Assembly (NCBI GenBank): GCA_028699085.1
Contig: JAQVVF010000002.1
Span: 68,557-132,556, forward strand
Source: Patescibacteria group bacterium
GTDB taxonomy: Bacteria; Patescibacteriota; JABMPQ01; JAQVVF01
DNA: 64,000 nt
Reading direction: 5' to 3'
Position 1 is the first letter of the stretch. Each line of letters begins with the position of its first letter. The notes under the pieces are model-generated. The model had not been told where the DNA came from. It saw only the letters and a program-made list of their open reading frames with translations, and did not search any database. Both the position numbers and the translations under genes were made by a program. This document shows positions 2,584 to 61,338 of this stretch, piece by piece.

Positions 2584-3087
2584 CTACATTGCTTTTCTTT
2601 GGAAGATCTTATTACCACCGCTTGTCTTTCTTCCAAAAAATCCCCGTTTCTGATCATTATTCTTGCCCCATTTCTTTTTTTTCTTTACTTTCTTTTCTTG
2701 TTTTTCTACAATTTTAGCTTCTTCTTTCTTAATTTTCTTAGCTTTTTTTCCTTTTACTTTTTCTTCCAATTCAATTTCAATATGGCTTGTTCTTCTTCTA
2801 ATAGTATAAGCTCTACCAAATGCTCGAGGACGAAATCTCTTCAATGTCGGTGCTTCATTAACAAAAACCTTAAAAACAAACAGATTATCTTTCTCCATAT
2901 TAAAGTTATGAACTGCGTTACTTGTAGCAGATAATAACAATTTCAATACTAAATCTGAAGATTTTTTATTCAAAAATCTCAATTGATTTTCTGCATCAAT
3001 CACATCTAAACCTCGAATTAGATCAACTACTAATTTCGCTTTTCTCGGAGCAATATGTAAATGTCTTAATGTTGCTTTAACTGACAT
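2584..3087 (-). CDS. rplV: 50S ribosomal protein uL22 with a Lys-rich C-terminal extension of about 55 aa
   Basis: LRHLHIAPRKAKLVVDLIRG...RAFGRAYTIRRRTSHIEI is the uL22 core. The protein is 167 aa, against about 110-120 aa in typical bacteria. Confidence 0.95.
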   Translation of the reverse strand: MSVKATLRHLHIAPRKAKLVVDLIRGLDVIDAENQLRFLNKKSSDLVLKLLLSATSNAVHNFNMEKDNLFVFKVFVNEAPTLKRFRPRAFGRAYTIRRRTSHIEIELEEKVKGKKAKKIKKEEAKIVEKQEKKVKKKKKWGKNNDQKRGFFGRKTSGGNKIFQRKAM

Positions 3088-3098
3088 ATATAGATTAA

Positions 3099-3446
3099 TT
3101 ATTCTTTAACTTCTTTTTTTTCACCTTCTTGCGCAGCTGCTAACTTTTGCGTCTCTGCTGCTTGAGCTGCTGCTGCTTCTTCCTTAGCAATTCTACCACC
3201 ATGAACTTCAAATCTTCTTGTCGGAGAAAACTCACCCAATCTATGTCCAACCATTTCTTCTGTTAAAAATACTGGAATGTGTTCTTTTCCATTATGTACT
3301 CCAATTGTAAAACCTACCATTTCTGGAAAAATAGTTGAGGATCTAGACCATGTTTTAATGATAGTCTTATCTCCTTGTCTCAATTTCTTTAATTTCTTTA
3401 AAAGTTTTGGATCACACCACAAACCTTTCTTTAAACTTCGTGACAT
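3099..3446 (-). CDS. rpsS: 30S ribosomal protein uS19 (Ala/Glu-rich C-terminal tail)
   Basis: MSRSLKKG...[31 protein letters not shown]...[11 protein letters not shown] matches uS19. Confidence 0.97.
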
Positions 3447-3473
3447 AATATATGTAACTTAGTATCTTATAAA

Positions 3474-4304
3474 TTATTTTCTTCTTCTAAGTATCAACTT
3501 ATCCGATAATCTATGAGGTTTTCTAGTCTTGACACCCATTGCTGGCTTGCCCCATCTTGTCTTTGGATGAATCATACCAATTGAGTTTCTTCCTTCACCA
3601 CCACCATGTGGGTGATCTTTTGGATTCATCGCTTTACCTCTTACTTCTGGTCTTCTGCCCATTTTTCTGCTTCTACCTGCGCTACCAATTATGATATTTC
3701 CATGATCAATATTGCTAATTCTACCAATCGTTGCACAAGAATCAATTAAGATATTTCTTACTTCACCAGAAGGAAATTTTAATTGAGCAAACTTGCCTTC
3801 AATTGCTAAAAGTTGAGCAGCTGCACCAGCACTTCTAACCATTTGTCCGCCTCTATTAGGCGCAAATTCAACTTCAGAAATAAAAGTACCCGTAGGAATA
3901 TATTTCAATGGATATCTATTTCCAACGGTTGCTTCAAGCTTTTTCAATGAACTCTTGACTTTATCACCAACCTTCAAATTTTCTTGAGCTAAAATATATG
4001 CCTTAGAACCATCAGTGTATTCAATCAATGCAACAAAAGCAGATCTATTTGGATCATATTCCAAGCTTTTTACTTCACCTTCAACATCATAATTTGATCT
4101 TCTAAAATCAATCATTCTATATTGTCTTTTGCTGCTTCCACCACGATGACGAATCGTAATTTTTCCTCGATGATTTCTACCACTATGTTTTTTTAATGCT
4201 ACAATCAAACCTTTTTCAGGTTCTTTTTTTGTTAACATTGAAAAATCAACGGTCGTAATATATCGTCTTGATGCTGTAACTGGTTTGTAGGTCTTAATTG
4301 GCAT
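3474..4304 (-). CDS. rplB: 50S ribosomal protein uL2
   Basis: GRNHRGKITIRHRGGSSKR...MNPKDHPHGGGEGR are uL2 motifs. Confidence 0.98.
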   Translation of the reverse strand: MPIKTYKPVTASRRYITTVDFSMLTKKEPEKGLIVALKKHSGRNHRGKITIRHRGGSSKRQYRMIDFRRSNYDVEGEVKSLEYDPNRSAFVALIEYTDGSKAYILAQENLKVGDKVKSSLKKLEATVGNRYPLKYIPTGTFISEVEFAPNRGGQMVRSAGAAAQLLAIEGKFAQLKFPSGEVRNILIDSCATIGRISNIDHGNIIIGSAGRSRKMGRRPEVRGKAMNPKDHPHGGGEGRNSIGMIHPKTRWGKPAMGVKTRKPHRLSDKLILRRRK

Positions 4305-4349
4305 TATCGAAAATTATTACTTTATAAATTTTGTAACTTTAAAACTCCG

Positions 4350-4754
4350 TTATACTCCTTCATAGATCTGGATGCTTTTTCCTGCTGGCAATGTTACAAT
4401 CGCTTTCTTTTTTGCGGAAGTCTGTCCAACTGTTTTTCCATATCTTCTTGATTTTCCAGATAAATTTATAACATTAACTTTTATTGGTTTAATTCCATAA
4501 ACTGCATAAATTGCTCTTGCAATCTCTTGCTTTGAAGCTGAGCTCTTTACTTGAAAAACATATTTATTAGAAATATTCAAATCTGCGCCTTTTTCTGAAA
4601 CTACCGGTTTTAACAAACATCTATGTGCTGCGCTATAAATATTTACAGCCTTTTTCGACTTTTCAGTATTTTTAGCAACTGAATCTTTCTTCTTAATAGA
4701 AGTTTCTTTTTTCTCATCTTTCTTTCCTTTTTTGAATACATCTAATAAAGCCAT
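4350..4754 (-). CDS. rplW: 50S ribosomal protein uL23 with a Lys-rich N-terminal extension of about 40 aa
   Basis: Core sequence LLKPVVSEKG...YVFQV...KPIKVNVIN...KKAIVTL; operon position between rplD and rplB. Confidence 0.93.
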   Translation of the reverse strand: MALLDVFKKGKKDEKKETSIKKKDSVAKNTEKSKKAVNIYSAAHRCLLKPVVSEKGADLNISNKYVFQVKSSASKQEIARAIYAVYGIKPIKVNVINLSGKSRRYGKTVGQTSAKKKAIVTLPAGKSIQIYEGV

Positions 4755-4770
4755 ATATTTAACTTGAAAA

Positions 4771-5382
4771 TTATTTAATCATTGCTAAAGATTTCTTATC
4801 TACAACCAATGTATCATATTTAACAACGTCATAAACGTTCAATAAATTTGATAATAATGGTTTTACACTTGAAACATTTCTGATAGACTTCATTGTCTTT
4901 TCATCATTTTCATTCAGCATTACCAAGGCGTTTTTTTCTACTTTAATATTCCTTAAAATCTTTACAAACTCTTTAGTTTTAATTGCTTCCATTTTTAATT
5001 CATCAAGAACAACTAATTTCTTTGAATTGTATTTATCAGAAAGCGCCATATGCAAAGCTTTTCTTTTTTCCTTCTTGTTTATTCTTTTTACATCATTCTT
5101 AGTCGCAACAGGACCAAATGTCTTACCTCCGCCCTTCCATAATGGAGAACGAATAGAACCAACACGAGCACGTCCTGTACCTTTTTGCTTCCATGGCTTA
5201 ATACCGCCACCTCTTACCTCAGCTCTATCTTTTGATTTGGAAGTAACTTCTTTTTTGCTCAATTGGGCAACAACTGCACGATGTACAACAGAATTTTTAA
5301 CTTCAACACCAAAAATATTTGGATCTAAATCCACTGTACCAACTTTCTTTCCTTCTTTGTTCAATATATCAACTTTTAACAT
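4771..5382 (-). CDS. rplD: 50S ribosomal protein uL4
   Basis: RGGGIKPWKQKGTGRARVGSIRSPLWKGGGKTFGP is a uL4 motif. Confidence 0.97.
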   Translation of the reverse strand: MLKVDILNKEGKKVGTVDLDPNIFGVEVKNSVVHRAVVAQLSKKEVTSKSKDRAEVRGGGIKPWKQKGTGRARVGSIRSPLWKGGGKTFGPVATKNDVKRINKKEKRKALHMALSDKYNSKKLVVLDELKMEAIKTKEFVKILRNIKVEKNALVMLNENDEKTMKSIRNVSSVKPLLSNLLNVYDVVKYDTLVVDKKSLAMIK

Positions 5383-21822: not shown

Positions 21823-21851
21823 AGTATAGCAAAAAATTAATCTTTTGTCAA
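21823..21851 (-). promoter_or_regulatory. Sigma-70-type promoter for the helicase gene
   Basis: On the minus strand, TTGACA (21851-21846), a 17-nt spacer, then TATACT (21828-21823). The 5' UTR contains the hairpin GGGTG-TTTT-CACCC. Confidence 0.55.
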
Positions 21852-22565: not shown

Positions 22566-23579
22566 TTATTTTATTTTTAAAATCTTACTCGGCGAATTAA
22601 ACATCGCATTCATCAAAGATTCAGCCACATGAAAAGGCTTGCCTCGATATGGCACTTCATGAATATCAAAACCAGGCATGTAATTTATTTCAATTATTCC
22701 AAATTTTTCAAACTTTTTAATATCAGAAGCAATCAAATCAATCGCGCAAAATCTTAATTGAAAAATTTCCGCAATTTCTACTGCCAACTTTTTATATTTT
22801 GGATTTACTTCACTATCACATTCAAATGATCTTCCTCCAGTACTAACATTAGCATTCTGTCGCAAAAAAACTTTGTCATCTTTCACAACAACATTATCCT
22901 CAGTTAATTTCTTTTCTCTCAAATTTCTTCTGAATTCAAAATCATTTACAATTGGACATAATGGCTGATCTTTGCCTACTCCTGGCTGATCATTATATTC
23001 GTCAATTAATTGTCTGATTGTTTGCTTACCATCTCCATCAACATAGGCAGGCTCACGTCGCAATGATGTTAACACTTTTCCGTCCATCACCAACAATCGA
23101 TAATCACAACCAAAAAGATATTCTTCAATCAGAAAAGAATTCGGTCTGCCTTTTTTACGACGATTATATTTGTAAACCTCTTTAATTGCTCCAATCAAAC
23201 ATTCCTTATCTTTTATTCCAACAGTTACTGCATGTCCTTGACTGCCATCTATTGGTTTGACCACAACAGGAAATTTAATAATTTTCTGATCAACCATCTG
23301 CAAAGTCTTGCGCATATTTTTCAAAATCCAACCCTTTGGATTCGGAATTTTATGTTTATTCAAGATCAATTTTGCCAAAGCTTTATTACCAGAAACAGTG
23401 CAAGAAACATGGCTATTCAAATCAGGCACATGCCATTTTACATAGACATTTTTACCTTTTTTACTGAATATTCTTAAACCTCTAGCTTTATCAACTAGCT
23501 CAACATCAACACCATTTTTCTCGGCTGCCGATAATAACGCTCCCGTGCAATTAAATTTCGAATACGGTATTTTTTCCAT
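22566..23579 (-). CDS. Stand-alone ATP-grasp ligase resembling the cyanophycin synthetase G (ATP-grasp) domain
   Basis: FPVVVKPIDGSQGHAVTVGI, LIEEYLFGCDYRLLVMDGKV, REPAYVDGDGKQTIRQLIDEYN, LRQNANVSTGG and IIEINYMPGFDIH all parallel CphA segments recalled from memory. There is no Mur-ligase-like domain. Confidence 0.75.
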   Translation of the reverse strand: MEKIPYSKFNCTGALLSAAEKNGVDVELVDKARGLRIFSKKGKNVYVKWHVPDLNSHVSCTVSGNKALAKLILNKHKIPNPKGWILKNMRKTLQMVDQKIIKFPVVVKPIDGSQGHAVTVGIKDKECLIGAIKEVYKYNRRKKGRPNSFLIEEYLFGCDYRLLVMDGKVLTSLRREPAYVDGDGKQTIRQLIDEYNDQPGVGKDQPLCPIVNDFEFRRNLREKKLTEDNVVVKDDKVFLRQNANVSTGGRSFECDSEVNPKYKKLAVEIAEIFQLRFCAIDLIASDIKKFEKFGIIEINYMPGFDIHEVPYRGKPFHVAESLMNAMFNSPSKILKIK

Positions 23580-23717
23580 GATTTAAAACTTTCTTTATAT
23601 TTTTATATAAAAAGACACTCTGTCCAGACTGTCTTTTTAGAAAAACTTGATTATTTGATTATTATGATATAATAACAAAAATTAAATAATATGTCAAGTT
23701 TGCAACTTTTTATCACT

Positions 23718-23788
23718 TCGGGGACCCGGGAATCGAACCCGGTCTACATCCACCCCATGGACGCGTACTACCGGTATACTAGTCCCCG
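23718..23788 (-). tRNA. tRNA-Pro (anticodon GGG)
   Basis: Manual cloverleaf: acceptor CGGGGAC/GTCCCCG with discriminator A, anticodon stem CGTCC/GGATG, loop AUGGGGU, T-arm CCGGG-TTCGATT-CCCGG. No encoded CCA. A TTGATT-17-TATAAT promoter lies just upstream. Confidence 0.9.
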
Positions 23789-23828
23789 ACTTAAACATTA
23801 TTATATGCTTTAACAACCGCAAAATCAA

Positions 23829-23858
23829 CAAAAAAAAAGAAGCTATATATAACTTCTT
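23829..23858 (-). terminator. Terminator after the lipoprotein gene
   Basis: AAGAAG (23837-23842) pairs with CTTCTT (23853-23858) plus inner A/T pairs. On the minus strand it is followed by a long T-run. Confidence 0.55.
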
Positions 23859-23901
23859 ACATAAAAAAACAAAAAATATCATAGATCAAAATTAGAATTT
23901 T

Positions 23902-24555
23902 CTATTCGATTACTTCACATCTTATTGTCGGCTTGTTGCTCCATACGTACACCGCAGTAAGTGTAATATCAGCAACTGTCTCACTACCAACTGTTTGATA
24001 AAAACTAGTTTGGTACACATTGAAACGCAAAGAATCACTTCCTATAGACCTTTTGCTTCCATCATCTTCAATAATAAAACATTCGGAATCAACAAATTTA
24101 CTTTCTTTCCCATTGAGCGGAGCTTCTACTTTGACCTCATAACCACCAATCAATAAATTAGAAAAAGAATATGTCCCATCAAAATCTGGCGTATCAATTC
24201 CTTCATATTGGCAAAGAGGATTAGATCTACAAGCATCTATTAAATCGCTGTTATTGCCCTTATAGCTATACCGTATTCTCAGTTCCGTTTCAAAATCATT
24301 ATATTGCCCATTACATTCATGTTTATAAGTGTCTTCAACAAATACGCATTGTATTTTTCTACCTTCTTTCATGGCAGAATAAGGAATAACGCCTCCTCCC
24401 GGAAACCTGATATATATACTACCAGACACGCTTCCAAACTGATCTTCTGACAAAGTAATGGTTTGATTTTGACTCTGATCTTGTTCACAAGACAACAAAA
24501 CGCTTATCAAAACAAATATCACGACACTGAAAAATCGAGTCTTGTTCTCTAACAT
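23902..24555 (-). CDS. Predicted lipoprotein with a carboxypeptidase-regulatory-like beta-sandwich segment
   Basis: Start chosen at the ATG preceded by GAGGAGGG. Signal peptide MLENKTRFFSVVIFVLISVLLSC with a lipobox-like LLSC. GTYSFSNLLIGGYEVKV resembles the CarboxypepD_reg pattern. Confidence 0.6.
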   Translation of the reverse strand: MLENKTRFFSVVIFVLISVLLSCEQDQSQNQTITLSEDQFGSVSGSIYIRFPGGGVIPYSAMKEGRKIQCVFVEDTYKHECNGQYNDFETELRIRYSYKGNNSDLIDACRSNPLCQYEGIDTPDFDGTYSFSNLLIGGYEVKVEAPLNGKESKFVDSECFIIEDDGSKRSIGSDSLRFNVYQTSFYQTVGSETVADITLTAVYVWSNKPTIRCEVIE

Positions 24556-24644
24556 TCTCCCTCCTCTTTTGGGTTTCAACTATCACGAAATAATTTTCTA
24601 AAGATCTTTCTTTACATAAATTAATTTTCTTTAAACATTAATTT

Positions 24645-24672
24645 ACATTACAACACTTTTCTATTTTGTCAA
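24645..24672 (-). promoter_or_regulatory. Candidate promoter for the lipoprotein gene
   Basis: On the minus strand, TTGACA (24672-24667), a 16-nt spacer, then TAATGT (24650-24645). Confidence 0.45.
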
Positions 24673-24673
24673 T

Positions 24674-24697
24674 AAAAAAAGCCACATTGCTGTAGCT
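24674..24697 (-). terminator. Terminator closing the CC/CDC operon
   Basis: The minus-strand RNA AGCUACA-GCAA-UGUGGCU forms a 7-bp stem with one G-U pair, followed by UUUUUUU. Confidence 0.65.
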
Positions 24698-24713
24698 CTA
24701 CAAAAAGAACAAA

Positions 24714-24911
24714 TTAACCACGAAGTTTCAAAAAATTCAATCTCTTATCTTTCGTTTTTCTCTGAATCGGAACTGTCAAAAATTTTTTCTTACAATGCTC
24801 AAAAGGAATACCTTCGCCTCGTCTTGTTTGATTTAACATAAAAACAGAATCTACCGACAAATGGTTGCTGAACAAAGTAATGAGCAATGCTTCAAAAAGT
24901 CTGCTTCCCAT
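24714..24911 (-). CDS. 65-aa hypothetical protein overlapping the 3' end of the upstream gene by 20 nt
   Basis: Start chosen at ATG 24911 because AGGAGA lies 6 nt upstream. The protein begins MGSRLFEALLITLFSNHLSVDSVFMLNQTRRGEGIPFEHCKKKF... and has no recognised family. Confidence 0.45.
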   Translation of the reverse strand: MGSRLFEALLITLFSNHLSVDSVFMLNQTRRGEGIPFEHCKKKFLTVPIQRKTKDKRLNFLKLRG

Positions 24912-25308
24912 CTTGATCTCCTGTATCATCGAATATCCCTGAGAATCTGACCAAATCAGTCCTTAAATCACCAGGTCTCTTTCTTTCATCCTGCAATAAA
25001 AAATGGAAACCTTTGCCTTCAGATTCAACAGGATTACTATCATGTGGCAAAATCACCAAGTTCCAATTCTGAATACAGGTAGTATCTTGAAAAGGATTGA
25101 AATTCCTCAAGATCTCACAATCACATTTGATTTTCAAAGCCATGAAAAAAATGGTTACCCTTCCGAAATGAATTCTGCCAATTCCATTTTTTTGCATTTC
25201 ATTATATTCAGCGATCACTTCTCTGGTCTTTTCCAAACTATGAATTCCACCTTCACAACAACCAGCACGTCGCGCATTCAATTCTTGGTAAAAAGTTCCT
25301 ATCTGCAT
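24892..25308 (-). CDS. Hypothetical protein, CC...CDC motif, paralog A (138 aa)
   Basis: Start at the ATG preceded by GGAGGGGG (7-nt spacing). It is a paralog of the gene immediately upstream, shows higher GC than the host, and matches no recognised family. Confidence 0.65.
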   Translation of the reverse strand: MQIGTFYQELNARRAGCCEGGIHSLEKTREVIAEYNEMQKNGIGRIHFGRVTIFFMALKIKCDCEILRNFNPFQDTTCIQNWNLVILPHDSNPVESEGKGFHFLLQDERKRPGDLRTDLVRFSGIFDDTGDQDGKQTF

Positions 25309-25309
25309 T

Positions 25310-25702
25310 TCACACCCCCTCCGATCCGACACAGCACTGCGGCATCATCGGATCGCATACGCCACGCACGTAATCTAAATTGATTACACCCAAATCACCA
25401 ATCGAAATTCCCTTTCGCACTCCCTTAATAGACAAATCCCACTGCTCAGACAGCCACCCATTGCCCATATTCAAACATTCCACCTGGCAATCGCATCTCG
25501 CTCCAATTTCCATCAAAAATTCAATCGCCCAATCAGCACGAATTGAAAACTCCAAAGACAGCTCCTGCACTCTGCTAAAAGAATGAACATCATTGCTGCA
25601 ACATTTACGGCCTTCGCGCATCAACTTTACAAAACCAATCAAATCCAAACTGCCTTTTTCAATAGAAAAACCAGAATCGTAAATAGAGCTCATTGGACTC
25701 AT
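25310..25702 (-). CDS. Hypothetical protein, CC...CDC motif, paralog B (130 aa)
   Basis: Start at the ATG preceded by GGAGGA. Its TGA stop is separated from the ATG of paralog A by 1 nt (TGA-A-ATG). Both share CC..(G/D)(I/V)HS(L/F), CDC, W(N/D)L(V/S)I and GDL. Confidence 0.65.
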   Translation of the reverse strand: MSPMSSIYDSGFSIEKGSLDLIGFVKLMREGRKCCSNDVHSFSRVQELSLEFSIRADWAIEFLMEIGARCDCQVECLNMGNGWLSEQWDLSIKGVRKGISIGDLGVINLDYVRGVCDPMMPQCCVGSEGV

Positions 25703-25830
25703 TTCCTTTTCCTCCATCACCAGCATAACTTTTGCTGGTTGCCTGCCAAAATTGGCAGGTCTTTTTTACCTTTTGGGCGTCAAATTTAAGAACAAAAAAT
25801 TGACATCAAAATGTCAAAAGAACATATCTA
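25703..25830 (-). promoter_or_regulatory. Structured 5' leader of the CC/CDC operon (three hairpins/palindromes)
   Basis: On the minus strand: TTGACAT-TTTG-ATGTCAA followed by TTTTTTG (25800-25817), CCTGCCAA-TT-TTGGCAGG (25742-25759), and ACCAGCA-6/7 nt-TGCTGGT (25719-25739) ending 3 nt before the SD. Confidence 0.5.
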
Positions 25831-25832
25831 CT

Positions 25833-25860
25833 AATATATACTATTTTAATATTTTGTCAA
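25833..25860 (-). promoter_or_regulatory. Sigma-70-type promoter of the CC/CDC operon
   Basis: On the minus strand, TTGACA (25860-25855), a 16-nt spacer, then TATATT (25838-25833). Confidence 0.55.
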
Positions 25861-25906
25861 TAAAAACAAATCACAAATCATGAACTGTATGTAATCTTAT
25901 AATATC

Positions 25907-26977
25907 TTAATTTATAGCTATATTCTCAATAATTCTTACAATATTTACCAAATCAGCTATTTTAATTTTCTCTTTTACACTATGACATTTTTCCCGACCA
26001 TAACCAATACTCAAAGACTCAATTCCTTTTTCACAAAAAACATTTGCATCTGTCGCTCCCATTCTCTTTTCATATGCTACTTTCAATCCCGACTTTCTAA
26101 TACCCTTTGAAATCATTTCGACTAAAGCGCTGTCTTTTTTATAATTATATCCAACAACTTCCTGCATTTTTTTCAATTCATATTTAGCATTGAATTTTTT
26201 ACAGCTATTTTTTAATTTTTTTTCTAATATTCCAATTTGTTTTTTAAAAATATTTTTATCAATCGCCCGAATCTCACCAACAAAATTTATTTCATCACAG
26301 ATTACATTTCCGCCTCTGCCACCAGAAACAACACCAATATTTGAAACACAATATTTGCTAATCCTGCCCGGCTTCCACATATTAATAAATTCTGCAAGAC
26401 AATTAATCGAATTCACGCCTTCTTCTGGCGCGCGCGAGTGCGCCATTTTTCCAATTACCTTACCCGAAAAACTCTGAATATATGGAGCGCCACAAGTTAT
26501 AAAGCCACAACGCGATGAACTATCAATAATTACTGCTCTCTTTGATTTCAAATTTTCGAAAACTAAATTCCTTGCTCCAACGCATCCAATTTCCTCCTGC
26601 ACTGTAAAAATCAATTCCAATGGCCGTACATTTTTTTGTTTTCGTAAATTTTTAACTGCCAACAAAATACCTGCAACACCGGCTTTATCATCAGCTCCCA
26701 AAATTGTCCTCCCATCGCTTCTGATAACACTATTTTTAATTATTGGCTTAATATTTTTTCCCGGCGAAACTGTATCCATATGAGCCGACAAAATTATTGG
26801 CTCGCCTCTGCCTTTTGTTTTTGCAATCACATTGCCGATTTTATCTTGCTTTGCTTTAATTTTAATTTTTTTTAAATAATCAATAATAAAATCAGCAACC
26901 TTTTTTTCATTGCCAGTTTCACTATTAATTTTTACTAGTTTCAAAAAAACTCTTACAACTTCAAGATCTCTCTTCAT
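25907..26977 (-). CDS. M20-family metallopeptidase/amidohydrolase (PepT/ArgE/DapE-like)
   Basis: SAHMDTV, LGADDKAGVAGIL and TVQEEIGCVGA metal-ligand motifs. Host-like AT-rich composition and no SD. Confidence 0.8.
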   Translation of the reverse strand: MKRDLEVVRVFLKLVKINSETGNEKKVADFIIDYLKKIKIKAKQDKIGNVIAKTKGRGEPIILSAHMDTVSPGKNIKPIIKNSVIRSDGRTILGADDKAGVAGILLAVKNLRKQKNVRPLELIFTVQEEIGCVGARNLVFENLKSKRAVIIDSSSRCGFITCGAPYIQSFSGKVIGKMAHSRAPEEGVNSINCLAEFINMWKPGRISKYCVSNIGVVSGGRGGNVICDEINFVGEIRAIDKNIFKKQIGILEKKLKNSCKKFNAKYELKKMQEVVGYNYKKDSALVEMISKGIRKSGLKVAYEKRMGATDANVFCEKGIESLSIGYGREKCHSVKEKIKIADLVNIVRIIENIAIN

Positions 26978-26993
26978 AAAAAATAATTAAATA

Positions 26994-27021
26994 ATTATAT
27001 CTTAAATTTAATAATTCTCAA
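26994..27021 (-). promoter_or_regulatory. Candidate promoter for the M20 gene
   Basis: On the minus strand, TTGAGA (27021-27016), a 16-nt spacer, then TATAAT (26999-26994). Confidence 0.4.
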
Positions 27022-27045
27022 AAAAAGGATTAACTAATTTCTTAA

Positions 27046-28767
27046 TTAATCCATAAAAGAACAACTTGTCATTGCCGAATTAGATCGGCCATGAACAATA
27101 TAACCATCAGAGATTGGAATGCAAGTCACTGTATTTCCGCCAAAACTAGAGCTATTTGCATCATTATCAAGCCAATACCAAACACAAATTCTCGTCCGCA
27201 CATTTTCTTTGTCCGCCTTTTTATTAGCTGGATCAAAAATCATCATTTCATCAATTACCATCTCGCAATATTCTTGAGCAATAACAGTTCGTTGTTTTGC
27301 CATTTCCGCAAATGTTTTCACTAGCTTTCTCCATGTACTCCGCATCATCCCCTTACTAATTGCCACAGCATGTCCGCCAGCAGCTTTGTTATCACCACCC
27401 GACAACTTCAGCACTACTTCCGCATCCAATCTTTTTCTAGCCTGTCTAATTTTTACAAACCAATTTTCTCGACCAGACATCACAAAAATTTCTCGCCCAA
27501 CATTTTTAAACATTGTTACCATCTTTGTGGATTCAGGATCAGCCATTTTCCATCCTCTCGTTGACTTTGCCAAAGCCATCAAAGACTTCAAATCTCCCAA
27601 TCCTAAAAATATCTTTTTTCCTAGTTCCAAATCTTTTTTATCTCCCAACTCACGAAAACCAATCAGTTGCAAATTATTATCAAAAGCAAACCAATATTCC
27701 CGAATCTGCATATCTGAAAGTTCCTGCATTGATTCATTAGAATATTCAACGCCCTTCCAAATAAAATTGTTTCCTTTCCAAACAACTGTATAGGCAAAAA
27801 AATTTTTCAATTCAACAAAACCATCGCTTCCCAAAAATTTGATCCATTCTTCATTCAAACGCTCATCAAATAACCATGCCATCAATTCTTTATAATCCAA
27901 AAAAGTCAGCAGATTTGGATGCAGTAAAACTTTGCCATCAAAATAGGCATCAATAATCTTCTTTTCAATATCTGCTGCAAATACTGCCATCCTGTTTTTC
28001 TGTAAATCATTTTTGTCAATTTCAGAATATTCTTTGAAGACTCTTTCCACCAAATCAAGTTTTTTGCCTTTCAAATAAACTCCATCATCTTTGACTTCTG
28101 CCAGAAAAGATATCCCAAACAAAAAAGTCAAACCAAATTCTTTTCCGTATTCTTCAAACAGCTTTGTCAAAGCCTGCTGTTCCGGACCATAACCATCGCG
28201 CCAAGGAGTCAAAAGAATTCCCACATTTCCGCCATTTGGCAACAAATCATGGATAGCTTCGACATACTTTTTGGCAATTGGCTCAAAAAATTTTTTGTCA
28301 GGGAAAAAATTACGCGAAATAATATCAATTACTGCTCCATAACCAGAACCAGTTGCACCCAAAGTAAATTCATTAATCTTCAATCCTTCAGCAGTTCTGA
28401 TTGCATCAATCCGAATTCTTTTTGCCAAAATTACGTTTTTTCTTTCCAATTCTTTTTTCCAAATCTCAATCTGCAATTTTGACCGACCGCAACACAAATC
28501 CTGCCACAGCCAAGAATATTCGCCATTGCTTGATCTCCTCGCCAAATCAACACAACCTCTCAAAAATCTTGGAATCAGATCTTCAAGCCTTTTCAAAGTT
28601 GCAATCTCTCCACAAGTCAAAGCATAAGTTTCCAGCCCAATTCTTGCCGTATAATTTTTTGGCATAGTCCCAATTTTTCCCCAATAAAGACCTTGTTCCA
28701 AATATTCCTTTTCCATTTGCCTACCCAAATCATCATAATCAAACAGCTGTCTGCTCGTTCCCTGCAT
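27046..28767 (-). CDS. Glutathionylspermidine-synthetase-like / circularly permuted ATP-grasp amide ligase (573 aa)
   Basis: RIRIDAIRTAEGLKINEFT parallels R.D......G..KLLE.N. HPNLLTFLDYKELMAWLF parallels P.......NKALL.LLW. VVLKLSGGDNKAAGGHAVAI parallels V.KP...REG..V. VIAQEY parallels the hinge. All parallels are to GSP-synthase family members (E. coli YgiC/Gss) recalled from memory. AGGAGAG lies 6 nt upstream of the ATG. Confidence 0.55.
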   Translation of the reverse strand: MQGTSRQLFDYDDLGRQMEKEYLEQGLYWGKIGTMPKNYTARIGLETYALTCGEIATLKRLEDLIPRFLRGCVDLARRSSNGEYSWLWQDLCCGRSKLQIEIWKKELERKNVILAKRIRIDAIRTAEGLKINEFTLGATGSGYGAVIDIISRNFFPDKKFFEPIAKKYVEAIHDLLPNGGNVGILLTPWRDGYGPEQQALTKLFEEYGKEFGLTFLFGISFLAEVKDDGVYLKGKKLDLVERVFKEYSEIDKNDLQKNRMAVFAADIEKKIIDAYFDGKVLLHPNLLTFLDYKELMAWLFDERLNEEWIKFLGSDGFVELKNFFAYTVVWKGNNFIWKGVEYSNESMQELSDMQIREYWFAFDNNLQLIGFRELGDKKDLELGKKIFLGLGDLKSLMALAKSTRGWKMADPESTKMVTMFKNVGREIFVMSGRENWFVKIRQARKRLDAEVVLKLSGGDNKAAGGHAVAISKGMMRSTWRKLVKTFAEMAKQRTVIAQEYCEMVIDEMMIFDPANKKADKENVRTRICVWYWLDNDANSSSFGGNTVTCIPISDGYIVHGRSNSAMTSCSFMD

Positions 28768-28814
28768 TTTTTTCTCTCCTGCCTACATTTTTGTAGGCCC
28801 TGGTTGTAAAGAAC

Positions 28815-28841
28815 AATCAAAAACCGGCTTTTAGAGCCGGT
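28815..28841 (-). terminator. Rho-independent terminator (module 1), 47 nt upstream of the ligase ATG
   Basis: ACCGGCT (28823-28829) pairs with AGCCGGT (28835-28841). On the minus strand it is followed by TTTTTGATTG. Confidence 0.7.
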
Positions 28842-28868
28842 CTTTGCACAATATAATTTCTTTAAAAA

Positions 28869-28955
28869 TTATCTTATATAATACAAAAATCGACTCATAA
28901 AAATGAAATGATAATGCCATGAATAAAATTTAAATTGTTGACTGATACTTAACAT
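28869..28955 (-). CDS. Candidate 28-aa mini-ORF (module 1)
   Basis: Hand translation gives MLSISQQFKFYSWHYHFIFMSRFLYYIR. It is paralogous to the mini-ORF at 29082..29156. There is no SD, so coding status is unproven. Confidence 0.3.
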   Translation of the reverse strand: MLSISQQFKFYSWHYHFIFMSRFLYYIR

Positions 28956-29028
28956 ATATATACTTAATTGCTTATATTCGTACGATTAGTTGCAGTTGCA
29001 GTTGCATTCGCAATATTAATAAGATGAA

Positions 29029-29057
29029 AACAAAAACTGGCCCAGATATTGAGCCAG
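29029..29057 (-). terminator. Rho-independent terminator (module 2)
   Basis: The minus-strand CTGGCTC-AATATCT-GGGCCAG forms a 7-bp stem with one G-U pair, followed by TTTTTG. Confidence 0.65.
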
Positions 29058-29081
29058 CTTTTTAAAAAAATTATTTAAAAT

Positions 29082-29156
29082 TTATACAATAAAAAGTCGA
29101 CTCAATAATCTTGAATGCCAGTAATGTGTATAAAATTGTCGGCTAATATTTTTCAT
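29082..29156 (-). CDS. Candidate 24-aa mini-ORF (module 2)
   Basis: Hand translation gives MKNISRQFYTHYWHSRLLSRLFIV. The ATG lies 8 nt after a consensus -10, so the transcript would be near-leaderless. Coding status is unproven. Confidence 0.3.
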   Translation of the reverse strand: MKNISRQFYTHYWHSRLLSRLFIV

Positions 29157-29164
29157 AATAATAT

Positions 29165-29192
29165 ATTATATAACACCTACATCTTTTGTCAA
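29165..29192 (-). promoter_or_regulatory. Consensus sigma-70-type promoter driving module 2
   Basis: On the minus strand, TTGACA (29192-29187), a 16-nt spacer, then TATAAT (29170-29165). Confidence 0.6.
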
Positions 29193-29210
29193 TATAACTT
29201 ATCAACAGGC

Positions 29211-29693
29211 CTATTCTGTTCCTTTTTCTTTTTCAGAATATAAATAATCATAATCTATTTTTTTGTATTTAAATAATTCATCATTATTAAAAAATCTGAA
29301 TACTTCTTTCTCCGTATTTTCAGGACTATCGGAAGCATGAACAATGTTGCTTGAACCAGATATACATAAATCGCCTCTGATACTTCCAGCATCAGCTTCA
29401 TAGCCCTTTGTTGGTCCAACTAGCAAGCGAACAGCTGATATCGCATTATAACCTTCCAAAACTGCAGCAACACAAGGCGCACTTTTCATAAAACCCTTTA
29501 AGTCATTAAAAAAAGGCTTGTCCTTATGATGAGCATAATGTTCATCTAATAATACATCGCTTAATTGCATCATTTTCAATGCTGTAATTTTCAATCCTTT
29601 TTTTTCAAAACGAGAAATCACTTCACCTAAAAGATTTCTTTGCAAACCATCTGGTTTTATGATAACTAATGTTCTTTCAATTTTGTCTGGCAT
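29211..29693 (-). CDS. ndk: Nucleoside diphosphate kinase (with a short C-terminal extension)
   Basis: ERTLVIIKPDGLQRNLLGEVISRFEKKGLKI...NIVHASDS (active-site His region). Confidence 0.93.
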   Translation of the reverse strand: MPDKIERTLVIIKPDGLQRNLLGEVISRFEKKGLKITALKMMQLSDVLLDEHYAHHKDKPFFNDLKGFMKSAPCVAAVLEGYNAISAVRLLVGPTKGYEADAGSIRGDLCISGSSNIVHASDSPENTEKEVFRFFNNDELFKYKKIDYDYLYSEKEKGTE

Positions 29694-37380: not shown

Positions 37381-37781
37381 TTTATTTTTTTTAATATCTG
37401 ATTTTGCATAAAAACCATTTTTTTATAACCATTTTCATCTTCATCCGAATAGTCAAAAAGATGTAAAATCCCATGTATAAGAATTTCTGCTAACTCTTCT
37501 TTTTGATTTCTTTTAGCCTTTTTTGCTTGTTTGCTAACTTGATCCAGACAAATAAAAATCTGACCTAAAAATTTCTCTTCTTTAATGTTAAAAGTCAGAA
37601 CATCAGTAATTTTATCAATTTTACGATATTTTCTATTTAAATATCTTATCTCTTTATTTTTAACCAAAACCAGATCAAAGTCATAATTACTTTTTTCATT
37701 CAGATAGCTAAAAGTATTTTTAGCTATCTTTTCAAAAAAGTCTTTACTAATTATTCTCTTTGTGCGATTAATTAAATTCAT
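37377..37781 (-). CDS. ybeY: rRNA maturation endoribonuclease YbeY (variant metal motif)
   Basis: HGILHLFDYSD corresponds to the consensus HG.LHL.GYDH, with the third His position occupied by Asp. Confidence 0.8.
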   Translation of the reverse strand: MNLINRTKRIISKDFFEKIAKNTFSYLNEKSNYDFDLVLVKNKEIRYLNRKYRKIDKITDVLTFNIKEEKFLGQIFICLDQVSKQAKKAKRNQKEELAEILIHGILHLFDYSDEDENGYKKMVFMQNQILKKIK

Positions 37782-38023
37782 TATTGTTTGAATGCTTGAC
37801 TATCTAATTTTCCAATCCTACGTAAATAATCTCTTTCTTTTCTAAATTCACTGCGCTTAATAGCGCTTCTTCTTGTTAAATTCTTACTTTTCTTTCTTTC
37901 AAATCGTTTTTTGCTTCTTGCCAAAACTAAAACTCCACTTCTCTGAAGTTGTTTTTTAAACCTTCTTAGCATGCTTTCAATTTTCTCATCGCCTCTTTTG
38001 GTTACATCAACCATTAGATTCAC
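37781..38023 (-). CDS. rpsU: 30S ribosomal protein bS21
   Basis: ESMLRRFKKQLQRSGVL...RFERKKSK matches bS21. Confidence 0.9.
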   Translation of the reverse strand: MNLMVDVTKRGDEKIESMLRRFKKQLQRSGVLVLARSKKRFERKKSKNLTRRSAIKRSEFRKERDYLRRIGKLDSQAFKQ

Positions 38024-39397: not shown

Positions 39398-39982
39398 TTA
39401 ATTTTTAACACTAAAATAAAGCGGCGTTTTAAAAATACCAACTTTTGCCAATGGCCAGCCTCGCAGCCAAACACGTCCTATCAAATTTTTTTCTGGCAAA
39501 GGACCCCATATTCTCGAATCACTACTGGCTTTTCTATTATCACCCAAGACAAAATATTCATCATCATTGACTTTATAATCGATTTTACCTGGAGTTTTCA
39601 AATCTGCTGGCAAATAACTCTCGTCAACCAAAACTCCTTCCGGATGATCTTGGTTATATATTTTAACACTTCCATCAAAAATTTCAAGTCTTTCACCTGG
39701 CAAAGCAATAATTCTCTTTATAAAATATTGAGATGGATCTTTTGGATATTTTAAAATAACAACGTCTCCTCGCTTAGGTTTTTCGAAACGATAGCTTATT
39801 TCATCAACGATAAGATATTGACCATCAGAAAAATTCGGCTCCATGCTATCACCTCTTACAAAAAAAGGTTGAAACAAAAAATATCTTATTGGAACAATAA
39901 TTGCTAGAGAAATCAAAATAATCTTTACCAATTCAACAACAAATTCTTTTGTTGAGGTCTTTTGCACTGTTTTTGTTTCCAT
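39398..39982 (-). CDS. lepB: Signal peptidase I
   Basis: GDSMEPN (catalytic Ser), KRIIALPGE and GDNRKASSDSR boxes. Confidence 0.93.
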   Translation of the reverse strand: METKTVQKTSTKEFVVELVKIILISLAIIVPIRYFLFQPFFVRGDSMEPNFSDGQYLIVDEISYRFEKPKRGDVVILKYPKDPSQYFIKRIIALPGERLEIFDGSVKIYNQDHPEGVLVDESYLPADLKTPGKIDYKVNDDEYFVLGDNRKASSDSRIWGPLPEKNLIGRVWLRGWPLAKVGIFKTPLYFSVKN

Positions 39983-55570: not shown

Positions 55571-55651
55571 GCCGAAGTGGCGAAATGGCAGACGCGCACG
55601 ACTCAAAATCGTGTGAGTTTACTCATGAGGGTTCGACTCCCTCCTTCGGCA
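55571..55651 (+). tRNA. tRNA-Leu (anticodon CAA)
   Basis: Manual cloverleaf: acceptor GCCGAAG/CTTCGGC plus A, anticodon stem CACGA/TCGTG with loop CUCAAAA, long variable arm, T-arm GAGGG-TTCGACT-CCCTC. Confidence 0.92.
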
Positions 55652-58751: not shown

Positions 58752-59327
58752 CTAACCCAAAGTTCGAAACCATTCAAGAATTGCCTGTGCATTTTGTTCC
58801 GCTGATTTACCAGTTGTATTCAGCAACAATTTCTTTTTCATTCTACTACTTGCAAATGCTTCTCGATATGCATCACGCTTTCGAAAAATACTTTTCAAAT
58901 CTTTGTCCCAATTACCAGTTTTTCCTAAAATCCGCCTTTCTTCCATCCTTCTATGCAATTCATCGTCATCAACATCTAACACAATCAAACAAACTCCAAT
59001 ACTATTCAGATATTCTTCCAACTCGTCATGCTCTGTATCAATTCCATGGAACAGTTTCAAATACACGATATCGGTCAGATGCAAACGCAACATTAATACT
59101 TCCTCATGTTCAGCAGCTTCAAAAACAGGCAAAAGAGATTCCATCTTTGTCCTTCCATATTCAACCATTTCCCACAACTTACCTTCATAAGACGCAACAA
59201 CAGCTGGATGATAATACCCATGAACAGTTACTGACACACATTCAGTGAATAACCTCTCCAATTCTGCCATAATGCTCGATTTTCCAGATTGATTACAACC
59301 TTCAAGAATACCCTTGAACAGCTGCAT
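58752..59327 (-). CDS. P-loop NTPase/kinase-like protein, GC-richer and SD-bearing (probable horizontal acquisition)
   Basis: Walker A-like LEGCNQSGKSS at residues 8-18. AGGAGGG lies upstream of ATG 59327. It has its own TTGACT-16-TATAAT promoter and flanking hairpins. Confidence 0.6.
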   Translation of the reverse strand: MQLFKGILEGCNQSGKSSIMAELERLFTECVSVTVHGYYHPAVVASYEGKLWEMVEYGRTKMESLLPVFEAAEHEEVLMLRLHLTDIVYLKLFHGIDTEHDELEEYLNSIGVCLIVLDVDDDELHRRMEERRILGKTGNWDKDLKSIFRKRDAYREAFASSRMKKKLLLNTTGKSAEQNAQAILEWFRTLG

Positions 59328-61113: not shown

Positions 61114-61338
61114 ATGCAAACGCGCAAAAATCTCCAGATATTTCTTCTCGTAATTGAAATCCTCTTAATAATAGCAGTCATATACCCAATCGCCCTTTCA
61201 ATCTTTAATTTCGTAACAAAGAACGAAAGTATCTATCAAATCGCCAGCAACAATAGTAATTTAATACCTTTGTACGGTTCTTTTATCCTCTTAATTTGTG
61301 GAATTTTTTATGCAAGATACGATCTAAAAAAACAATAA
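61114..61338 (+). CDS. Small two-transmembrane-segment membrane protein
   Basis: AAGGAGAG lies 6 nt upstream of the ATG. Two hydrophobic segments. The terminator AACCTC-ATCC-GAGGTT plus a T-run lies at 61352-61372. Confidence 0.55.
   Translation: MQTRKNLQIFLLVIEILLIIAVIYPIALSIFNFVTKNESIYQIASNNSNLIPLYGSFILLICGIFYARYDLKKQ

Follow-up and report, generated by a model that had tools for sequence, protein, structure and literature searches.

A conserved module of putative tandem leader attenuators, a divergent ATP-grasp-type ligase, and an M20 peptidase in Patescibacteria

RESULTS AND DISCUSSION

Two units between ndk and tRNA-Pro

The window analyzed here is a stretch of 64,000 nucleotides (nt) from a metagenome-assembled genome (MAG) of Patescibacteria (contig JAQVVF010000002.1, positions 68,557 to 132,556), in which a 5.4-kb block with every gene on the minus strand lies between ndk and the gene for tRNA-Pro. 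A first-pass annotation of the sequence had taken this block for foreign genes, possibly from a host or neighboring bacterium, that had been domesticated into several small transcription units and might form one undescribed system. We arrived, with somewhat more confidence than doubt, at a different reading: the interval holds two unrelated units, and one of them (unit A) is a conserved module of attenuator, ligase, and M20 peptidase that recurs in differing genomic contexts and whose ligase would be induced by ribosome stalling. Unit A comprises a leader (28768–29192), the ligase gene (27046–28767), and the M20 gene (25907–26977). These are the only parts of the block that travel together in all six lineages with visible flanks (37–100% identity). 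Because only these three co-occur and the other genes are lineage-specific, the block is not one system, and the idea of a single combined function was abandoned. The features of unit A and the block boundaries are as follows.

29211–29693, minus strand: ndk (Pfam NDK, 2.4e-50), final gene of the conserved backbone and upper block boundary
Between ndk and the 573-amino-acid (aa) open reading frame (ORF), minus strand: 440-nt non-coding-looking stretch with the mini-ORF modules
29192–29165, minus strand: predicted sigma-70-like promoter of the leader–ligase unit (TTGACA, 16 nt, TATAAT; 12/12 matches)
29082–29156, minus strand: leader ORF 1, MKNISRQFYTHYWHSRLLSRLFIV; region 1 (AGCCGAC) at 29138–29144, Trp codon 13 at 29118–29120, region 2 GAGTCGACTTTT at 29092–29103
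29062–29032, minus strand: predicted intrinsic terminator 1 (13 pairs and a U-run)
28956–29031, minus strand: spacer between the modules, with two CGAAT motifs and, within a 47-nt insertion missing from the relative L005, three copies of GCAACT
28869–28955, minus strand: leader ORF 2, MLSISQQFKFYSWHYHFIFMSRFLYYIR; Trp codon 13 at 28917–28919, region 2 at 28884–28896
28846–28818, minus strand: predicted intrinsic terminator 2 (12 pairs and a U-run)
27046–28767, minus strand: 573-aa orphan ligase with a predicted ATP-grasp fold of the GspS/YgiC/Cp1B/eukaryotic glutathione synthetase (GS) type; Shine-Dalgarno (SD) sequence AGGAG
27021–26994, minus strand: predicted own promoter of the M20 gene (TTGAGA, 16 nt, TATAAT; 11/12 matches), 16 nt before the ATG
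25907–26977, minus strand: PepT-like M20 metallopeptidase, 356 aa; host-like composition, no SD
23717–23789, minus strand: tRNA-Pro(GGG), identified with ARAGORN, lower block boundary

The NCBI name of the 573-aa protein is PHN19_01635 [Patescibacteria group bacterium]. Its relatives share 80% (L005–8), 68% (L004), 61% (L009), 52% (L001–3), and 37% (L010 and L011) amino acid identity with it. The order leader–ligase–M20 is the same in the window, L005–8, L004, L009, and L001–3; of the 37% lineages, L010 shows ligase–M20 and L011 shows leader–ligase. The M20 gene adjoins the 3' end of the ligase gene in each lineage with downstream DNA (L001–L010 and the window). The neighbors of the module differ, being OTCase and ArgRS in L001, an ABC exporter in L004, and a HAD hydrolase in L009.

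Anatomy of the tandem leader

Two tandem modules precede the ligase gene in the window, L005, L004, L009, and L001, and a single module does so in L011. Each consists of an ATG-started ORF of 23–30 codons followed by a strong intrinsic terminator. The ORFs are intact in 11/11 copies from six lineages, differ in length by whole codons only, and keep their ATG, and they are predicted to be translated. These two mini-ORF modules had been named only in passing in the first-pass annotation; they proved to be real and conserved, and they are the most informative part of the block. The Trp residue at codon 13 is present in all 11 leader ORFs, including those encoding the peptides MKFNCRQNHMYNWHEAFSSWLLY (L001) and MKNITKLAKRIRWNHFRKGDEKSANFAIVR (L011). 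Phe, Tyr, Trp, and His account for 57% of leader codons 8–18, compared with 10% across the proteins encoded in the window (p=5e-37; p=3e-13 for the five diverged copies alone). A homopolymeric codon run is absent; the leaders contain a single invariant Trp amid mixed Phe, Tyr, and His. The peptide sequence is also conserved outside the RNA helices (MKNI… and Y-x-W-H). The 10 alignable peptides contain no Asp, one Glu, and no Lys past position 9, whereas the L011 peptide, which is very different from the others except for MKNI and Trp-13, has Asp, Glu, and Lys.

The ATG of leader ORF 1 begins 8 nt after the end of the −10 box, and the distance is 6–8 nt in L005, L004, and L009 as well. Because the −10 box lies only 6–8 nt before the first leader ATG in these four lineages, the leader–ligase transcript is predicted to be essentially leaderless. 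Terminator 2 and the SD of the ligase gene are separated by a 50-nt stretch with a short hairpin, and no promoter-like site was found on the minus strand between them (28818–28768).

When the leader modules were folded without guidance with RNAalifold, a 7-bp helix 1:2, pairing codons 5–7 (AGCCGAC) with the Ser-Arg-Leu codons late in the ORF, was predicted together with the terminator. Region 2 (GAGUCGGCUUUU) is complementary to the 5' arm of the terminator (AAAAGCUGGCUC) as well, giving an alternative antiterminator helix 2:3. The proportion of paired cells was 94% for 1:2, 100% for the terminator (3:4), and 92% for the 14-bp helix 2:3, compared with 12–56% in slid controls overall and 30–56% in those for 2:3. 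The terminator helix includes a CG/UA covarying pair, and two pairs of helix 1:2 are changed on both sides. Compared with shuffled ORFs, the 2:3 duplex was stronger at p≤0.001 in three first modules (m1) and at p 0.03–0.1 in the rest; it ends 9–20 nt ahead of the stop codon in 11/11 modules. Whole modules fold far better than shuffled sequences (z −4.6 to −5.0), with little difference in energy between the terminator and antiterminator states. The best full-length fold of window module 1 is the antiterminator (−28.1 kcal/mol, z −4.6), as it is for the first module of L004 and for L011. The L011 module cannot be aligned at the nucleotide level and its arms encode other residues, yet the same 1:2, 2:3, and 3:4 complementarities are present. 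Each module combines a short ORF, a terminator, a predicted 2:3 antiterminator, and a predicted 1:2 anti-antiterminator that encloses the putative regulatory codons. Judged from sequence, the modules have the layout of ribosome-dependent attenuators arranged in tandem.

The element appears to be confined to this position. An nhmmer search with the module alignment against all 252 fetched sequences gave no further copies in the window or in the other 251 loci. Rfam gave nothing at gathering score in the block, and the leader matches at E≤10 were sub-threshold noise (L20_leader and miRNAs). A degenerate pattern, CGACAAWWT-N20-42-GAGTYGRYTTTT, used in genome and metagenome scans, was too loose, and among the matches listed, only L068 (on the same contig as L002) was genuine.

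Several further observations concern the surroundings of the leader. One or two GC-rich variable hairpins lie directly 5' of the ligase SD in the window (28768–28817), L004 (1200–1245), and L009 (2055–2125), and are absent in L005 and L001. CGAAT/GCGAAT motifs crowd directly 3' of the leader terminators in the window (28956–29031), L001 (9707–9746 and 9900–9940), L004 (640–700 and 1010–1050), and L009 (1855–1890). CACAAAT is also present at these positions in L004 and L009. Seven of the 12 plus-strand CGAAT motifs in the 15.6 kb of L001 sit in two 40-nt clusters, and the clusters could be a candidate protein-binding site. The ligase start codon of the lineage with 37% identity is overlapped (ATGA) by a hydrophobic ORF of 26 codons with an SD, MKKFVILVVLAVILGIVEHLAQRKKS (L011 476–556 and L010 1–63), which has no counterpart in the window.

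The ligase and the M20 peptidase

The 573-aa protein belongs to a very small family: its relatives form 7 clusters in 5.8 billion clustered proteins. There was no match in Pfam or NCBIfam at E≤0.1, including none to the Pfam GSP_synth family (PF03738), and neither the protein alone nor a profile of 53 sequences had a significant match among PDB sequences, the profile reaching YjfC only at E=1.4. An AlphaFold model was built from a seq­uence alignment of seven members (predicted local distance difference test [pLDDT] 70.9, predicted template modeling score [pTM] 0.67). Its structural matches were ATP-grasp acid-amine ligases, namely Cp1B (16.4), YgiC (14.6), 3n6x (13.9), and GspS (13.7), followed by trypanothione synthetase and eukaryotic-type glutathione synthetases (9.6–13.5), all at low sequence level (12–13% identity to the known acid-amine ligases). 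In E-64 biosynthesis, Cp1B is the ATP-grasp enzyme that forms amides, and YgiC and YjfC are peptide-spermidine ligases (PMC12568646). At the level of the fold, therefore, the model supports the assignment of the protein as a very divergent ATP-grasp acid-amine ligase of the GspS/YgiC/Cp1B/eukaryotic-GS type. The earlier label of amide ligase is borne out to that extent, and sequence profiles did not place the protein in any family.

An exhaustive profile search yielded 106 relatives at E≤1e-3, two of them representatives of the close family; the remainder share ~20% identity and are mostly ~420–500 aa long. Of ten such distant relatives compared with Pfam, none reached the cut-off, and P0011 alone touched GSP_synth at a sub-threshold E=4e-4. 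An inserted domain of ~115 aa (~aa 330–445) is absent from the distant relatives. K454, G142, Q498, R526, and H559 are invariant across 53 family members, and R119, D121, and E133 are nearly so (at least 90%); the R-x-D…E segment lines up with the Mg-binding motif of D-Ala-D-Ala ligase (Ddl). No relatives of the ligase were found in scans of viral contigs. Two distant relatives (~20% identity; L252 5771–7410 and L253 5150–8717) adjoin a glutaredoxin gene, or a GST-C-like gene and a lysine-2,3-aminomutase-like (LAM-like) radical S-adenosylmethionine gene. These neighbors hint weakly that the wider family may be involved in thiol-peptide chemistry.

The M20 protein contains both the catalytic domain (Pfam Peptidase_M20, PF01546, 3.6e-21) and the dimerization domain (M20_dimer, PF07687, 3e-11), and its sequence shows the metal-ligand motifs HxD, D, EE, and H. 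Its best NCBIfam match was TIGR01883 (PepT-like) at 2e-72 and 244.1 bits, under the cut-off of 274.25.

Unit B and the recent exchange of the block

Downstream of unit A, the interval contains a second set of genes and, next to it, the lower boundary.

25703–25860, minus strand: predicted promoter and ~130-nt 5' untranslated region (UTR) of the small-protein operon
25860–25833, minus strand: predicted sigma-70-like promoter of this operon (11/12 matches)
25310–25702, minus strand: cysA, 130-aa Cys-rich orphan; CC-x4-H … CDC … C motif, GC content at third codon positions (GC3) 0.47, SD GGAGG
24892–25308, minus strand: cysB, 138-aa cysA paralogue with the same Cys/His motif; SD GGAGGGGG
24714–24929, minus strand: 71-aa ORF that overlaps the 3' end of cysB (a start at 24911, behind GGAG, would give 65 aa), followed by the terminator
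24699–24678, minus strand: predicted intrinsic terminator after the 71-aa gene
23902–24555, minus strand: 217-aa lipoprotein with lipobox LLSC; SD AGAGGAGG; predicted promoter TTGACAAAA at ~24644–24677 (promoter repeat family D1)

Outside the window lineage, homologues of the Cys-rich pair, the 71-aa gene, and the lipoprotein turned up in L005 (the 80% relative) and nowhere else, and these genes are not beside the ligase gene in L001, L004, or L009. Unit B, comprising cysA–cysB–71-aa gene and then the lipoprotein, is a set of lineage-specific orphans with their own promoters, outside the conserved module. CysA and CysB match each other by BLASTP at E=5e-5, and their alignment has 27 invariant columns, including all Cys and His residues, which probably form a metal site. 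A DUF2695 match to CysA appeared only at E=0.06, and nothing relevant was found in the DUF2695 literature. The search with CysA returned a single cluster (95% identity, 130 aa), scans of viral contigs gave no relatives of either protein, and the AlphaFold2 model of CysA from a four-row alignment was unusable (pLDDT 34). The 71-aa gene is 98.6% identical in L005. The lipoprotein has weak beta-sandwich matches (Y_Y_Y, SdrD_B, and CarboxypepD_reg), all sub-threshold. Within the UTR of the cysA operon (25795–25832, minus strand), a 3-codon ORF, ATG TTC TTT TGA, begins 7 nt past the −10 box; its stop falls within the 5' arm of a weak hairpin that precedes a U-run, and a GC-rich hairpin lacking a U-run comes next. 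This region may be another translation-coupled control element.

The host-like promoters and hairpin terminators described in the first-pass annotation were found where it had placed them, and its report of no integrase, transposase, or flanking direct repeat also held. Scans with Pfam, NCBIfam, PADLOC, and PHROGs gave no integrase or transposase domain, and no flanking direct repeats or tRNA fragment were detected, the repeat families seen being promoter boxes and short, apparently chance matches. PADLOC and PHROGs returned nothing for the ligase or the small proteins and so gave no support for a defense system or a prophage. An extended −35 box, ATTGACAAAA, is common to three promoters of the block (24664–24673, 25852–25861, and 29184–29193) and also occurs at 21843, 28011, and 49088, making 6 copies in the window where 1.2 are expected.

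The synteny comparison showed that the content of the interval between tRNA-Pro and ndk varies. The backbone ftsA–ftsZ–comEC–lactamaseB–GT2–GT4–ndk is kept in relatives whose GT4 is 69–95% identical, and the genes past ndk differ, with three different gene sets among the relatives. L254 has HD/ERCC4/PIF1-WYL/RadC/antitoxin genes at this point, and L005 and L256 have a gene for a 337-aa protein. In L005, 2.45 kb missing from the window (2846–5298) lie between ndk and the leader, before the ligase block; this segment encodes the 337-aa protein that also follows ndk in L256, a TrpR-family helix-turn-helix protein (PF01371, 6e-19), and an SD-led 129-aa protein. In L255 (4996–8185), six tandem ORFs of ~150 aa on the opposite strand directly follow ndk in the position of the ligase block. 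L255 comes from the same sample, with the same coverage, as L001, whose ligase module sits elsewhere.

The window and L005 are near-identical over a stretch that runs from the 3' end of the ligase gene, across M20 and cysA, as far as ~24500. Synonymous divergence (dS) between them is 0.005 for M20, 0.05 for cysA, and ~0 for ligase residues 201–280 and 526–573, compared with 0.39–0.60 for the flanking ndk, GT4, and GT2. Such a drop over the M20–cysA stretch points to exchange between lineages in the recent past. The other ligase segments have dS of 0.6–1.3 and a ratio of nonsynonymous to synonymous divergence (dN/dS) of 0.14–0.40; positive selection on the ligase was considered and rejected, because such values in the divergent segments indicate a recombination mosaic instead. 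The interval from ndk to tRNA-Pro thus appears, from these comparisons, to be a variable and recently exchanged region. No donor outside Patescibacteria was found: all homologues recovered lie on contigs that are low in GC and share this promoter and leader style, and both source names given are Patescibacteria. Of the earlier proposal of foreign, domesticated genes, the accessory and exchanged nature of the DNA therefore stands, and a donor among host or neighboring bacteria is not supported.

Beyond the lower boundary, the Rfam tRNA model was silent at gathering score for tRNA-Pro (23717–23789), yet it reported tRNA-Leu at 55571–55651. A stand-alone ATP-grasp protein of 337 aa is encoded just past tRNA-Pro (22566–23579, minus strand), a second amide ligase adjoining the block. 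Its matches are to GshAB and, through TIGR02068 (1e-67, far under the cut-off), to the middle, ATP-grasp portion of cyanophycin synthetase.

Composition and SD sequences

The rise in GC content and the SD-bearing starts pointed out in the first-pass annotation were both confirmed. The 1-kb bins of the block (24001–29000) have GC contents of 0.327–0.370, against a window average of 31.6%, and the 200-nt windows peak at 0.46–0.49 (25200–25500), with 0.385 at 24800–25100. At the gene level, GC3 is 0.28 for the lipoprotein, 0.32 for the 71-aa gene, 0.32 for cysB, 0.47 for cysA, 0.32 for the ligase, and 0.24 for M20 (0.244, host-like, as had been stated); the 59 other window ORFs have a mean of 0.220 and a standard deviation of 0.039 (Mann-Whitney p=2.3e-4 for the block against the others). 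SD-type sequences precede the starts at 24555 (AGAGGAGGGAGA), 24911 (GGAGATCAAG), 25308 (GGAGGGGGTGTGAA), 25702 (GGAGGAAAAGGAA), and 28767 (AGGAGAGAAAAAA), whereas M20 and the housekeeping genes have A/T alone upstream of the start. A predicted anti-SD duplex of −6 kcal/mol or stronger occurs in 5/6 block genes and 4/59 others (Fisher p=8.6e-5), and GC3 correlates with SD strength across the window (rho −0.29, p=0.02). The four others are at 58752–59327 (minus), 61114–61338 (plus), 39398–39982 (minus), and 37781–38014 (minus); the first two also have raised GC3 (0.32 and 0.35). Of these two, one encodes a 191-aa P-loop kinase-like protein and the other a 74-aa membrane protein with a weak KwaA match.

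Reading this signature as a mark of recent arrival did not survive the comparison with relatives. The ligase gene retains its SD (AAGGAGG-type) and a GC3 of 0.32–0.37 in lineages down to 52% identity, and M20 has no SD in any lineage; on this basis, the signature is gene-specific and old, not a trace of recent import. A general leaderlessness of the host genes, such that only genes with long 5' UTRs would need an SD, was also considered and rejected, as recognizable host promoters lie 11–96 nt from the ATG. Nothing relevant was found in the literature on SD usage in Patescibacteria. The stable split in every lineage between an SD-led ligase gene with raised GC3 and an SD-less, host-like M20 gene is an unexplained feature of translation initiation.

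Proposed mechanism

The analysis establishes the anatomy of unit A, its conservation and co-occurrence, the fold of the ligase, the pairing potential of the leader, and the statistics on composition and SD; what we infer from these is stalling as the signal, the kind of amino acid or ligand that is sensed, and the substrates of the two enzymes. The strong promoter would start an essentially leaderless transcript with two tandem attenuators, each with a Phe/Tyr/His-rich ORF of 24–28 codons. A ribosome reaching the stop codon would cover region 2, the terminator 3:4 would form, and the ligase gene would stay untranscribed; in the absence of translation, region 1 would pair with region 2, so that the terminator would again form and the ligase would be off. 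A ribosome stalled in the aromatic/Trp stretch, which is within the loop between regions 1 and 2, would allow 2:3 to pair, and transcription would read through to the SD-led ligase gene and add to the constitutive transcription of M20. Two such switches in series would sharpen the response. The stall could be caused by uncharged tRNA-Trp, by aromatic or His tRNAs, or by a nascent-peptide arrest that depends on a ligand. The ligase and the PepT-like M20 peptidase would most likely make and cleave a small compound with an amide link, for example a short peptide or a conjugate of a peptide and an amine.

A number of observations weigh against this proposal. Compensatory changes are few (2–3 pairs per helix among 10 closely related modules), covariation being limited because the 10 alignable copies are so closely related, and the covariation shuffle controls were marginal (5/500 and 18/500). 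Helix 1:2 carries one mismatch in both window modules, and it was not the best fold when the arms of window module 1 were folded in isolation. In the second modules, helix 2:3 is weak (−7 to −10.7 kcal/mol, p 0.05–0.1). Classical attenuators carry runs of one regulatory codon, whereas a single Trp stands here among mixed aromatic residues and His. No Patescibacteria are known to make tryptophan, and the logic of sensing Trp is therefore unclear here. MKNI… is conserved outside the helices, so the peptides themselves could have a function. On the enzyme side, the ligase model is of moderate confidence only, and Thr135 occupies what we take, from our own motif reading, to be the Mg-binding Asn position. 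M20 is served by a separate promoter, and what links it to the ligase is adjacency.

A more far-reaching form of the proposal is that the tandem leader peptides represent a new class of stalling sensor, responding to the supply of charged tRNA-Trp or of aromatic amino acids from the host, or to a small molecule that acts with Trp-13 on the nascent chain as in TnaC, and driving an unknown cycle of ATP-grasp ligase and tripeptidase that makes a new metabolite, a small peptide or a peptide-amine, for the nutrient economy of the symbiont. In its most unusual version, the peptides would be both the switch and the substrate of the ligase. We consider this extended form unlikely, if worth stating.

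Alternative explanations

The leader peptides might instead be products. In a pathway resembling those of ribosomally synthesized and post-translationally modified peptides (RiPPs), the mini-ORFs would encode precursors, the ligase would modify them, for example by attaching an amine or amino acid to a carboxylate, M20 would trim them, and the hairpins would only set the ratio of precursor to enzyme. Short ORFs, two of them paralogous, do stand directly before an ATP-grasp ligase and a peptidase in every lineage, their sequence is conserved beyond the helices, and the closest structural relatives of the ligase include enzymes acting on peptides (YgiC/YjfC). RiPP operons usually have a leaky terminator behind the precursor gene, and PGM1 of pheganomycin is a parallel case of an ATP-grasp enzyme that adds to a peptide. 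However, a precursor has no need of mutually exclusive 1:2, 2:3, and 3:4 pairing, which is kept even in L011, where there is a single copy and a very different peptide apart from MKNI and Trp-13. The partners for graspetide cross-links are missing from the 10 alignable peptides (L011 excepted), and the ligase has a GspS/GS-type fold rather than one of the RimK/microviridin type. We rate this pathway as quite unlikely, and below the attenuator, because of the retained three-helix logic, the scarcity of Asp and Glu in the 10 peptides, and the non-graspetide ligase. We give still less credence to the mini-ORFs as independent small-protein or small-RNA genes without a role in cis, with the ligase gene transcribed from an unrecognized promoter and the complementarity incidental to Ser-Arg codons and the near-palindromic AGYCGRC. 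Regions 1 and 2 both encode Ser-Arg, so that coding constraint could give part of the complementarity, several of the per-module duplex tests reached only p 0.03–0.1, and no Rfam family matched. Yet the arms of L011 encode Lys-Leu-Ala and Ser-Ala-Asn and still pair, the modules hold a strict position from promoter to ligase gene in all lineages, nothing promoter-like follows terminator 2, and the element occurs nowhere else in the sequences searched.

Two further explanations concern the block as a whole. That all 5.4 kb are foreign genes of a non-Patescibacteria donor, domesticated as one joint system, would accord with the raised GC3 and the SD in 5/6 genes, with a variable region adjoining a tRNA gene, and with the near-identical recent exchange with L005. 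It is nevertheless improbable: no homologue of the ligase or of cysA, the two orphans searched, was found beyond a narrow group of low-GC contigs, the SD and GC3 of the ligase gene persist to 52% identity, unit B is not beside the ligase gene in three of the relatives, and there is neither an integrase nor an att-like repeat. At the other extreme, nothing in the block may be accessory, the SD and higher GC3 marking a minority class of host genes (weakly expressed, for example, or with long 5' UTRs), and the synteny break being an ordinary rearrangement point. SD-led genes with raised GC3 are indeed scattered in the window (58752–59327 and 61114–61338) and in relatives (OTCase, DAGK, and others), GC3 and SD strength are correlated, and L005 has the block at the same site. 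The chance of this seems small to us as well, given that the ligase family is extremely rare compared with the GT4 homologues of the same clade, that three different gene sets follow ndk, and that dS falls 10- to 100-fold over part of the block. The reading of a conserved attenuator–ligase–M20 module beside an unrelated unit B is the one that we retain.

Comparison with known systems and significance

The proposed leader resembles the trpL, pheL, and hisL attenuators of E. coli in having a short ORF between promoter and gene followed by a terminator, three possible and mutually exclusive helices, and potential stall codons between regions 1 and 2. It differs from them in its one fixed Trp in a mixed Phe/Tyr/His stretch, in the tandem arrangement of two attenuators, in an ORF at or near the 5' end of the transcript, and in preceding a ligase gene rather than an operon for amino acid biosynthesis. 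It matches no Rfam leader family and is seen in a few Patescibacteria-like contigs only. The ligase is set apart from GspS, YgiC, YjfC, Cp1B, and eukaryotic GS by its low identity, the lack of a GSP_synth match, the ~115-aa insertion, the N-terminal extension, and Thr in place of Asn. As in the bifunctional GspS of E. coli, an amide-forming ATP-grasp enzyme may be coupled to a hydrolase that might reverse the reaction or process what is made; in GspS this is a fused CHAP amidase, whereas here it would be a separate M20 protein with its own promoter, adjacency being the sign of coupling. Peptidase T and other M20B tripeptidases have the M20 domains and motifs in common with this protein, which scores under the TIGR01883 cut-off. 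The block shares with tRNA-linked islands its position next to a tRNA gene, deviating composition, variable content, and recent exchange between lineages; unlike them, it has no integrase, direct repeats, or tRNA fragment, and it lies on the 5' side of the tRNA gene. Each part is thus of a known kind, and what is new is the combination, the single fixed Trp in an aromatic-rich leader, and the occurrence in Patescibacteria. No prior description of the combination was found, and none of leader-peptide attenuation in Patescibacteria.

If the block is merely an accessory patch, the analysis still separates a three-part module from lineage-specific orphans and corrects the idea of one foreign system. 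The switch also offers a handle on an orphan enzyme family with 7 close and ~100 distant relatives and no Pfam or NCBIfam profile, since the condition under which ribosomes stall would hint at when the ligase is needed and at its substrate. Patescibacteria have tiny genomes and draw amino acids from other cells, and to our knowledge their gene regulation is almost unstudied. The tandem leader switch, if true, would be a concrete and testable case of Patescibacteria sensing their translation or amino acid status.

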